Assembly (NCBI GenBank): GCA_951406725.2
Contig: OX597815.1
Span: 168,082,001-168,146,000 of the forward strand
DNA from: Octopus vulgaris
Lineage: Eukaryota
Direction: 5' to 3'
Length of the DNA stretch: 64,000 nucleotides
Below are positions 4,079 to 4,246 of the stretch, piece after piece. The stretch's first letter is position 1, and the number at the start of each line of letters is the position of its first letter. The notes under the pieces were generated by a model, which saw only the letters and a program-made list of their open reading frames with translations, searched no databases and had not been told where the DNA came from. The position numbers were made by a program, and so were the translations under genes.

Positions 4079-4158
4079 TTTGCAAATATAGAAAATATTA
4101 TTTTTGTAAGAATGCAACATATCAGTGAGGAAAAGATATAACGTAGAGATGTAATTAC

Positions 4159-4246
4159 TGAGCAGTGTCTTTGATGCTTTCATTCACACCAATATGGACA
4201 TCATCTGGGCCAAGGAAAATGGATTGACCTCCAAGAAGGTTCATTC
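4159..4246 (-). CDS. OTC: OTC exon equivalent to human exon 4
   Basis: 88 nt, ttttccAG|GA...GCT CA|GTAATT. Encodes (G)MNLLGGQSIFLGPDDVHIGVNESIKDTA(H). Phases agree with both neighbouring exons. Confidence 0.96.

Follow-up and report, generated by a model that had tools for sequence, protein, structure and literature searches.

Can a nucleotide that causes disease in mammals be the ordinary state of the same gene in an octopus, and what becomes of its transcript there? This question is raised by the ornithine transcarbamylase (OTC) locus of Octopus vulgaris, which we studied in a window of 64,000 nucleotides (assembly GCA_951406725.2, contig OX597815.1, forward-strand positions 168,082,001 to 168,146,000). 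In O. vulgaris OTC, exon 4 ends in A and residue 129 (human numbering) is therefore His, as in the spf-ash / c.386G>A (R129H) allele. Window position 4159 is T on the forward strand and A on the reverse strand; exon 4 is flanked by CCAG and GTAATT, and the joined frame of exons 4 and 5 reads IKDTAHVLCRM. The original prediction, in which exon 4 ended with CA/GTAATT and exon 5 began with T to give DTAHVL, had both the coordinates and the strand logic right. The features are listed in Table 1.

Table 1. Features of the OTC locus in the window (a slash marks the exon-intron boundary).
Feature	Position in window	Strand	Remark
OTC last base of exon 4 (A)	4159..4159	-	middle base of split codon CA/T, which encodes His129 (human numbering); the ancestral Arg codon presumably had G here
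OTC exon 4, 88 nt, ending in phase 2	4159..4246	-	one spliced contig per run in 4/4 runs, 0 differences
OTC exon 4 5' splice site TCA/GTAATTAC	4151..4161	-	without -1G and +5G; used in 4/4 contigs
OTC intron 4, 1962 nt	2197..4158	-	+3 to +16 free of GT; nearest GT, out of frame, at +17; search for an editing-complementary sequence negative
OTC exon 5, 154 nt	2043..2196	-	first base T completes the His codon; contig loose ends at 2167-2196
OTC exon 3, 82 nt	7840..7921	-	joined to exon 4 in 4/4 contigs
OTC exon 2, 112 nt	10997..11108	-	coding exon
OTC coding exon 1, beginning with the start codon of MSLF	19315..19397	-	likely mitochondrial leader

The ten exons of the gene, five in the window and five before it (exons 6-10, up to 11 kb before the window start), translate letter for letter into O. 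vulgaris CAI9718491.1 from the MSLF start. The product is a full-length, intact orthologue of mitochondrial ornithine transcarbamylase (PF02729 and PF00185), encoded at a single locus: the PF00185 matches (three of seven candidates) all lie there, and a DNA search with window positions 4100-4300 returned one genomic place. The best solved-structure match of the exon-5 peptide was human OTC 1c9y, starting at chain residue 97. A different donor or acceptor that would escape the His codon was considered and rejected: only one of the 12 GT sites from 4246 to 4000 is in frame, and it is the natural donor; among the six AG sites from 2260 to 2150, the sole in-frame alternative would delete 12 codons; and the transcript contigs use the natural sites. 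It should be noted that the CAI9718491.1 model carries a 55-residue N-terminal extension, partly encoded at 27132-27185 and 19398-19448 (reverse strand) and missing from the O. sinensis and O. bimaculoides models, which is likely 5' UTR annotated as coding. The window also holds broken frames that, judged by eye, we take to be LINE reverse transcriptase-like (12219-13472, 25822-26484 and 45866-48541), Tc1/mariner transposase-like (24901-25403, 41967-42413 and 54498-55406) and Helitron-type helicase-like (42722-43578).

In a full-length alignment, the octopus His column is that of human OTC residue 129 (Arg), and octopus intron 4 splits codon 129 after the second base, as at human c.386 (129 x 3 - 1 = 386), which PMC4390381 describes as the last base of exon 4 and as lying second in codon 129. 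Thus, the octopus change and c.386G>A / R129H agree in base, codon and intron position, as had been predicted; the octopus donor also shares its exonic triplet TCA with the mutant mouse donor, as given in Table 2 of PMC4390381. The human and mouse disease is presented in that paper as a splicing defect, in which a weak GTTTGT donor, naturally of low score, is combined with nearby cryptic donors; an adjoining GT in human and one at +48/49 in mouse serve as the sites of mis-splicing (PMC4390381, PMC8670272). Import, assembly and activity of R129H are given as unimpaired by both sources, each citing older work, and in an intronless yeast assay R129H and R129L supported more than 84% growth and were judged pathogenic through splicing (bioRxiv 10.1101/2022.10.26.513893). 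According to PMC4390381, spf-ash mice also keep some correctly spliced OTC mRNA. The octopus and mammalian alleles are thus alike in codon, base and the last-base position in exon 4, whereas the octopus intron starts with GTAATT rather than the GTTTGT of mammalian OTC intron 4 and has no counterpart of the mammalian cryptic donors (adjacent in human, +48/49 in mouse). They further differ in that the octopus A at 4159 is the normal allele in two species and that its dominant transcript is correctly spliced. The spf-ash / c.386G>A allele is also characterized by exon-4 skipping, ~90% loss of mRNA and 3-10% activity.

A compensated pathogenic deviation is a human disease allele that is wild type in another species, and the original prediction offered this as one description of the locus. 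The description is apt in one respect, as the human pathogenic nucleotide and residue are the reference state of the octopus orthologue. However, unlike in such deviations, His129 is reported to be near-neutral in human OTC, where disease results from splicing in the mammalian intron-4 context; if R129H leaves the enzyme unharmed, as reported, the protein has nothing to compensate, and any compensation would reside in the intron context. The octopus OTC adds a case to a known class, that of disease alleles which are the normal state in another species, and it is a weak case because the residue itself is benign. In the open-access literature, outside of which most subscription journals lie, we found no paper joining Octopus, OTC and R129H, and none joining "compensated pathogenic deviation", OTC and splicing.

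We compared the residue at column 129 across species. His (DTAHVL) is present in XP_029655316.1 (O. sinensis) and CAI9718491.1 (O. vulgaris), and Arg is kept in O. bimaculoides (DTARVL) and Argonauta hians (DSARVL). Among the best 120 of 7047 full-length matches, the column contains R in 104 proteins, K in 10, S in 2, and T, N, V and H in one each, i.e., 16 of the 120 are non-Arg and the only His is that of the octopus protein itself; in the same set, conservation equals or exceeds that of column 129 in 142 of the 347 columns. All named non-cephalopod molluscs among these 120 matches have Arg, Sepia pharaonis has Lys, and two clusters that rank beside Sepia (9 and 5 proteins) have Lys or Thr. 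A further 84 cluster members yielded R 70, S 2, K 1 and no His (11 were without the search motif); among the best 120 matches and these 84 members, the octopus proteins are the only named animal proteins with His. A search with exon 5 only (120 matches) gave K 66, R 43, L 4, M 4, H 2 and T 1. On these alignments, His is rare at column 129 but Arg is not required, in keeping with the papers on R129H cited above. The suggestion that the position might show ordinary variation among invertebrate OTCs is borne out in part: K, T, S, N and V occur, but His does not. Two JGI/IMG OTC proteins of 318 aa (P0068 and P0135) have His in this column, too. As a separate observation, the cephalopod OTCs (P0001-P0006) deviate at 12-18 of the columns in which the other matches are at least 90% conserved (e.g., L43D/A, Q285E/V/I and K307H/Y, human numbering), compared to 4-9 such departures in five other chosen molluscs; this pattern suggests faster OTC evolution in coleoids and hints at relaxed constraint.

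Most simply, the G>A change at 4159 would have arisen after the split from O. bimaculoides and is common to two species. The ancestral codon was presumably CG/T, and the change would then be a CpG transition of the type that recurs in patients; the ancestral G is obtained by parsimony from Arg in the O. bimaculoides and Argonauta proteins, with the third base assumed to be T. The CpG at c.386 is the stated cause of recurrence in patients (PMC4390381), and gene-body CpG methylation is described for octopus (PMC9476566), so that a CG/T ancestor may provide a plain mutational explanation of the shared mutation. The CpG observed/expected ratio was 0.61 in exons 1-5 versus 0.69 in the window, which is uninformative on methylation-driven change.

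Exon 5 was present in 20 of 24 listed runs, in all of them as contigs, and four runs (X1, X2, X4 and X16, from 4 studies with 2 organism labels, depth 9-75) were compared over positions 4060-4325. Each of the four has a single contig covering 4159-4249, with no other letters, no gaps and A at 4159. The loose ends of the contigs match exon 5 on one side (Table 1) and 7843-7872 (exon 3) on the other; thus, the contigs are spliced exon 3-4-5 transcripts with an unedited A, and the runs are cDNA. An edited contig would be expected to have stopped matching one base earlier. The edited form, G at 4159, was found in the contigs of none of the four runs, which excludes it as the major form only. Within the 99 intron bases compared, the contigs of the four runs do not cover intron 4, and none enters the intron or ends elsewhere, as would be expected if a neighbouring cryptic donor were used, with the caveat that minor isoforms would escape contigs. 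The contigs show presence, not efficiency; they collapse minor alleles, so that low-level or tissue-restricted editing would escape, and the compared stretch holds exon 4 alone, so that exon-4 skipping cannot show there. An assembly error or a private polymorphism at 4159, which had also been raised, is hardly credible, given the assemblies and transcript contigs: two species have His in their assembly-derived proteins, and the contigs of 4 studies have A. Two further RNA runs, X19 and X20, contain 0.86 and 0.79 of the exon-5 words, respectively, and are labelled "insect metagenome".

The pre-mRNA triplet at 4159 is CAG, and ADARs favour a 3' G. The original prediction proposed that A-to-I editing at this site could rescue Arg and the donor together, with a complementary sequence to be looked for in the downstream intron; none stood out from the shuffled or control probes. 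Local folding, with 101-801 nt centred on the site, gave z values of -0.58 to +0.79, with 4159 in a 5-bp stack. The best duplex with intron 4 (-21.6 kcal/mol versus a control mean of -27.7) is weaker than those of 23/23 control exon probes, 27/30 shuffles pair with intron 4 at least as well as the site probe, and inverted matches within 20 kb reach 12 nt at most. The stretch 4139-4179 (reverse strand), at the exon-4 end, can pair in part with the acceptor of intron 4 and the first bases of exon 5 (~2170-2200). This is the best duplex in 1-12000 (-26.5 kcal/mol); it was rejected as an editing substrate, being no better than control probes against intron 4. With A in all four spliced contigs and no duplex above the controls, the proposed rescue finds no support in these data.

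Position 4159 fits the definition of a potential restorative site in PMC6881472 (for which an author correction exists), i.e., a genomic A with Arg in the ancestor by parsimony; such sites are reported there to be edited more often than synonymous ones, at a median level below 2.5%. Compared to restorative (harm-permitting) coleoid recoding (PMC6881472, PMC8382921), the octopus OTC is alike in its lineage-specific G>A revertible by one A-to-I event and unlike in that neither an edited transcript (in the four runs) nor a dsRNA substrate was found; it counts as a potential site only. For O. vulgaris, there are ~270 edited CAT middle positions versus 17,262 CAT codons, i.e., ~1.6% if both published tables share a gene set, on which their legends are silent. 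OTC is absent by name from the supplements of PMC8382921 (apart from its per-site tables S4/S5), PMC7703385, PMC5850729 and PMC9699675, which says nothing on editing.

The strength of the donor was expressed as a simple U1 duplex energy, which is a crude score and does not show compensation. As predicted, the octopus exon-4 donor is weak: at -1.9 kcal/mol, it is the weakest of the nine in the gene (the others range from -4.2 to -12.3), compared to -5.3 kcal/mol for the same site with -1G. By the same score, the wild-type human and mouse sites have -4.4 and the mutants -1.4 (human) and -1.2 (mouse). The 34 distinct donors of the octopus mitochondrial carbamoyl-phosphate synthase gene (CPS1) have a median of -6.4; three of them are as weak as the OTC exon-4 donor, and one of the 34 is likewise without both -1G and +5G. 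The OTC exon-4 donor is in the weak tail but inside the natural range, in this small two-gene sample. Relative to the mammalian donor, +3A/+4A replace +3T/+4T, +5G is lost and competing donors are absent: octopus intron 4 has no GT at the human (+5) or mouse (+49) cryptic positions, and the nearest intronic GT is poorly paired. The +3A/+4A context and the lack of a neighbouring GT are the candidate compensating changes, yet the duplex energy is about as poor as that of the mutant mammalian sites; we infer that this context, together with the absence of competing donors, is why octopus splices correctly. U-richness behind the donor, which could recruit a TIA1-type helper, is 0.42 versus 0.28-0.40 in four other introns and is uninformative. 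It should be noted that OTC introns 3-6 (donors at 7839, 4158, 2042 and one before the window) all begin with GTAAT without +5G, so that 4/9 OTC donors, versus 4/34 in the CPS gene, are without +5G.

Taken together, we consider it likely that the genomic His129 of O. vulgaris and O. sinensis, whose codon is normally spliced and unedited in the dominant mRNA of the four runs, stems from a CpG-type G>A change and is tolerated. A CpG-type G>A would have hit the end of exon 4 once the lineage had separated from O. bimaculoides; the donor would keep enough U1 pairing via +3A, +4A and +6T, with no competing GT beside it, to be spliced well enough; and His at 129, if near-neutral for the enzyme, would allow the substitution to be tolerated. 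The intact OTC frame and the presence of mitochondrial CPS and argininosuccinate-synthase-family exons speak for this, whereas the closeness of the octopus donor energy to those of the mutant human and mouse sites speaks against it. Trace editing of a few percent would be compatible with tolerance and would be noise. It is unlikely, on the other hand, that the octopus is a natural hypomorph, in which loss of -1G lowers exon-4 inclusion as in spf-ash, mis-spliced RNA is cleared by NMD (skipping of the 88-nt exon would shift the frame), and lower OTC output is tolerated because octopus excretes ammonia to water. A donor that is the weakest in its gene and falls in the weakest tenth against the 34 CPS1 donors would fit such a hypomorph, as would the hint of relaxed constraint in the cephalopod departures from conserved columns, but no cryptic-donor or intron-retaining contig appears within 99 bases of the donor in 4/4 runs, the normal transcript assembles at depth 9-75, equally weak donors occur in CPS1, and the human and mouse cryptic positions are without GT.

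Restorative A-to-I editing at a functional level (at least 10%) in some tissue, e.g., brain, restoring Arg and a -1G-like donor, is very unlikely. The status of 4159 as a potential restorative site of a class edited more often than others (PMC6881472), the favourable CAG triplet and the fact that contigs from runs of unstated tissue drop minor alleles all count in its favour; set against these are the absence of G from the four runs, the performance of the shuffled probes, the low median level at restorative sites in PMC6881472, the small fraction of CAT middle positions edited in O. vulgaris (subject to the gene-set proviso above) and the little to be gained in the protein, judging by the yeast assay (bioRxiv 10.1101/2022.10.26.513893). 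The fullest form of the idea strikes us as highly improbable: the O. vulgaris complex would be a natural counterpart of spf-ash, and in another tissue ADAR would edit the final base of exon 4 ahead of splicing, a single inosine restoring Arg129, strengthening the weak donor and thereby setting OTC output.

As to the urea-cycle context, a mitochondrial carbamoyl-phosphate synthase gene (G000:C10:44.25-44.39 Mb, L032-L045) and argininosuccinate-synthase-family exons (G000:C1:137.82 Mb, L029-L031) are present, so that the citrulline-arginine route seems to persist. Another locus, on C4, has two CPSase domains and is likely CAD; it was left out of the donor comparison for want of a matching protein. 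On cephalopod OTC or urea-cycle physiology, we found nothing relevant in the open-access literature. Editing that coupled recoding to donor strength would, if true, matter much more than a tolerated substitution, and nothing found here points there. A tolerated His129 would confirm from another species that the disease seen with R129H depends on the intron context and not on the residue, because the same nucleotide is the normal allele where intron 4 starts differently, and the octopus donor is a possible natural control for OTC exon-4 minigene work.
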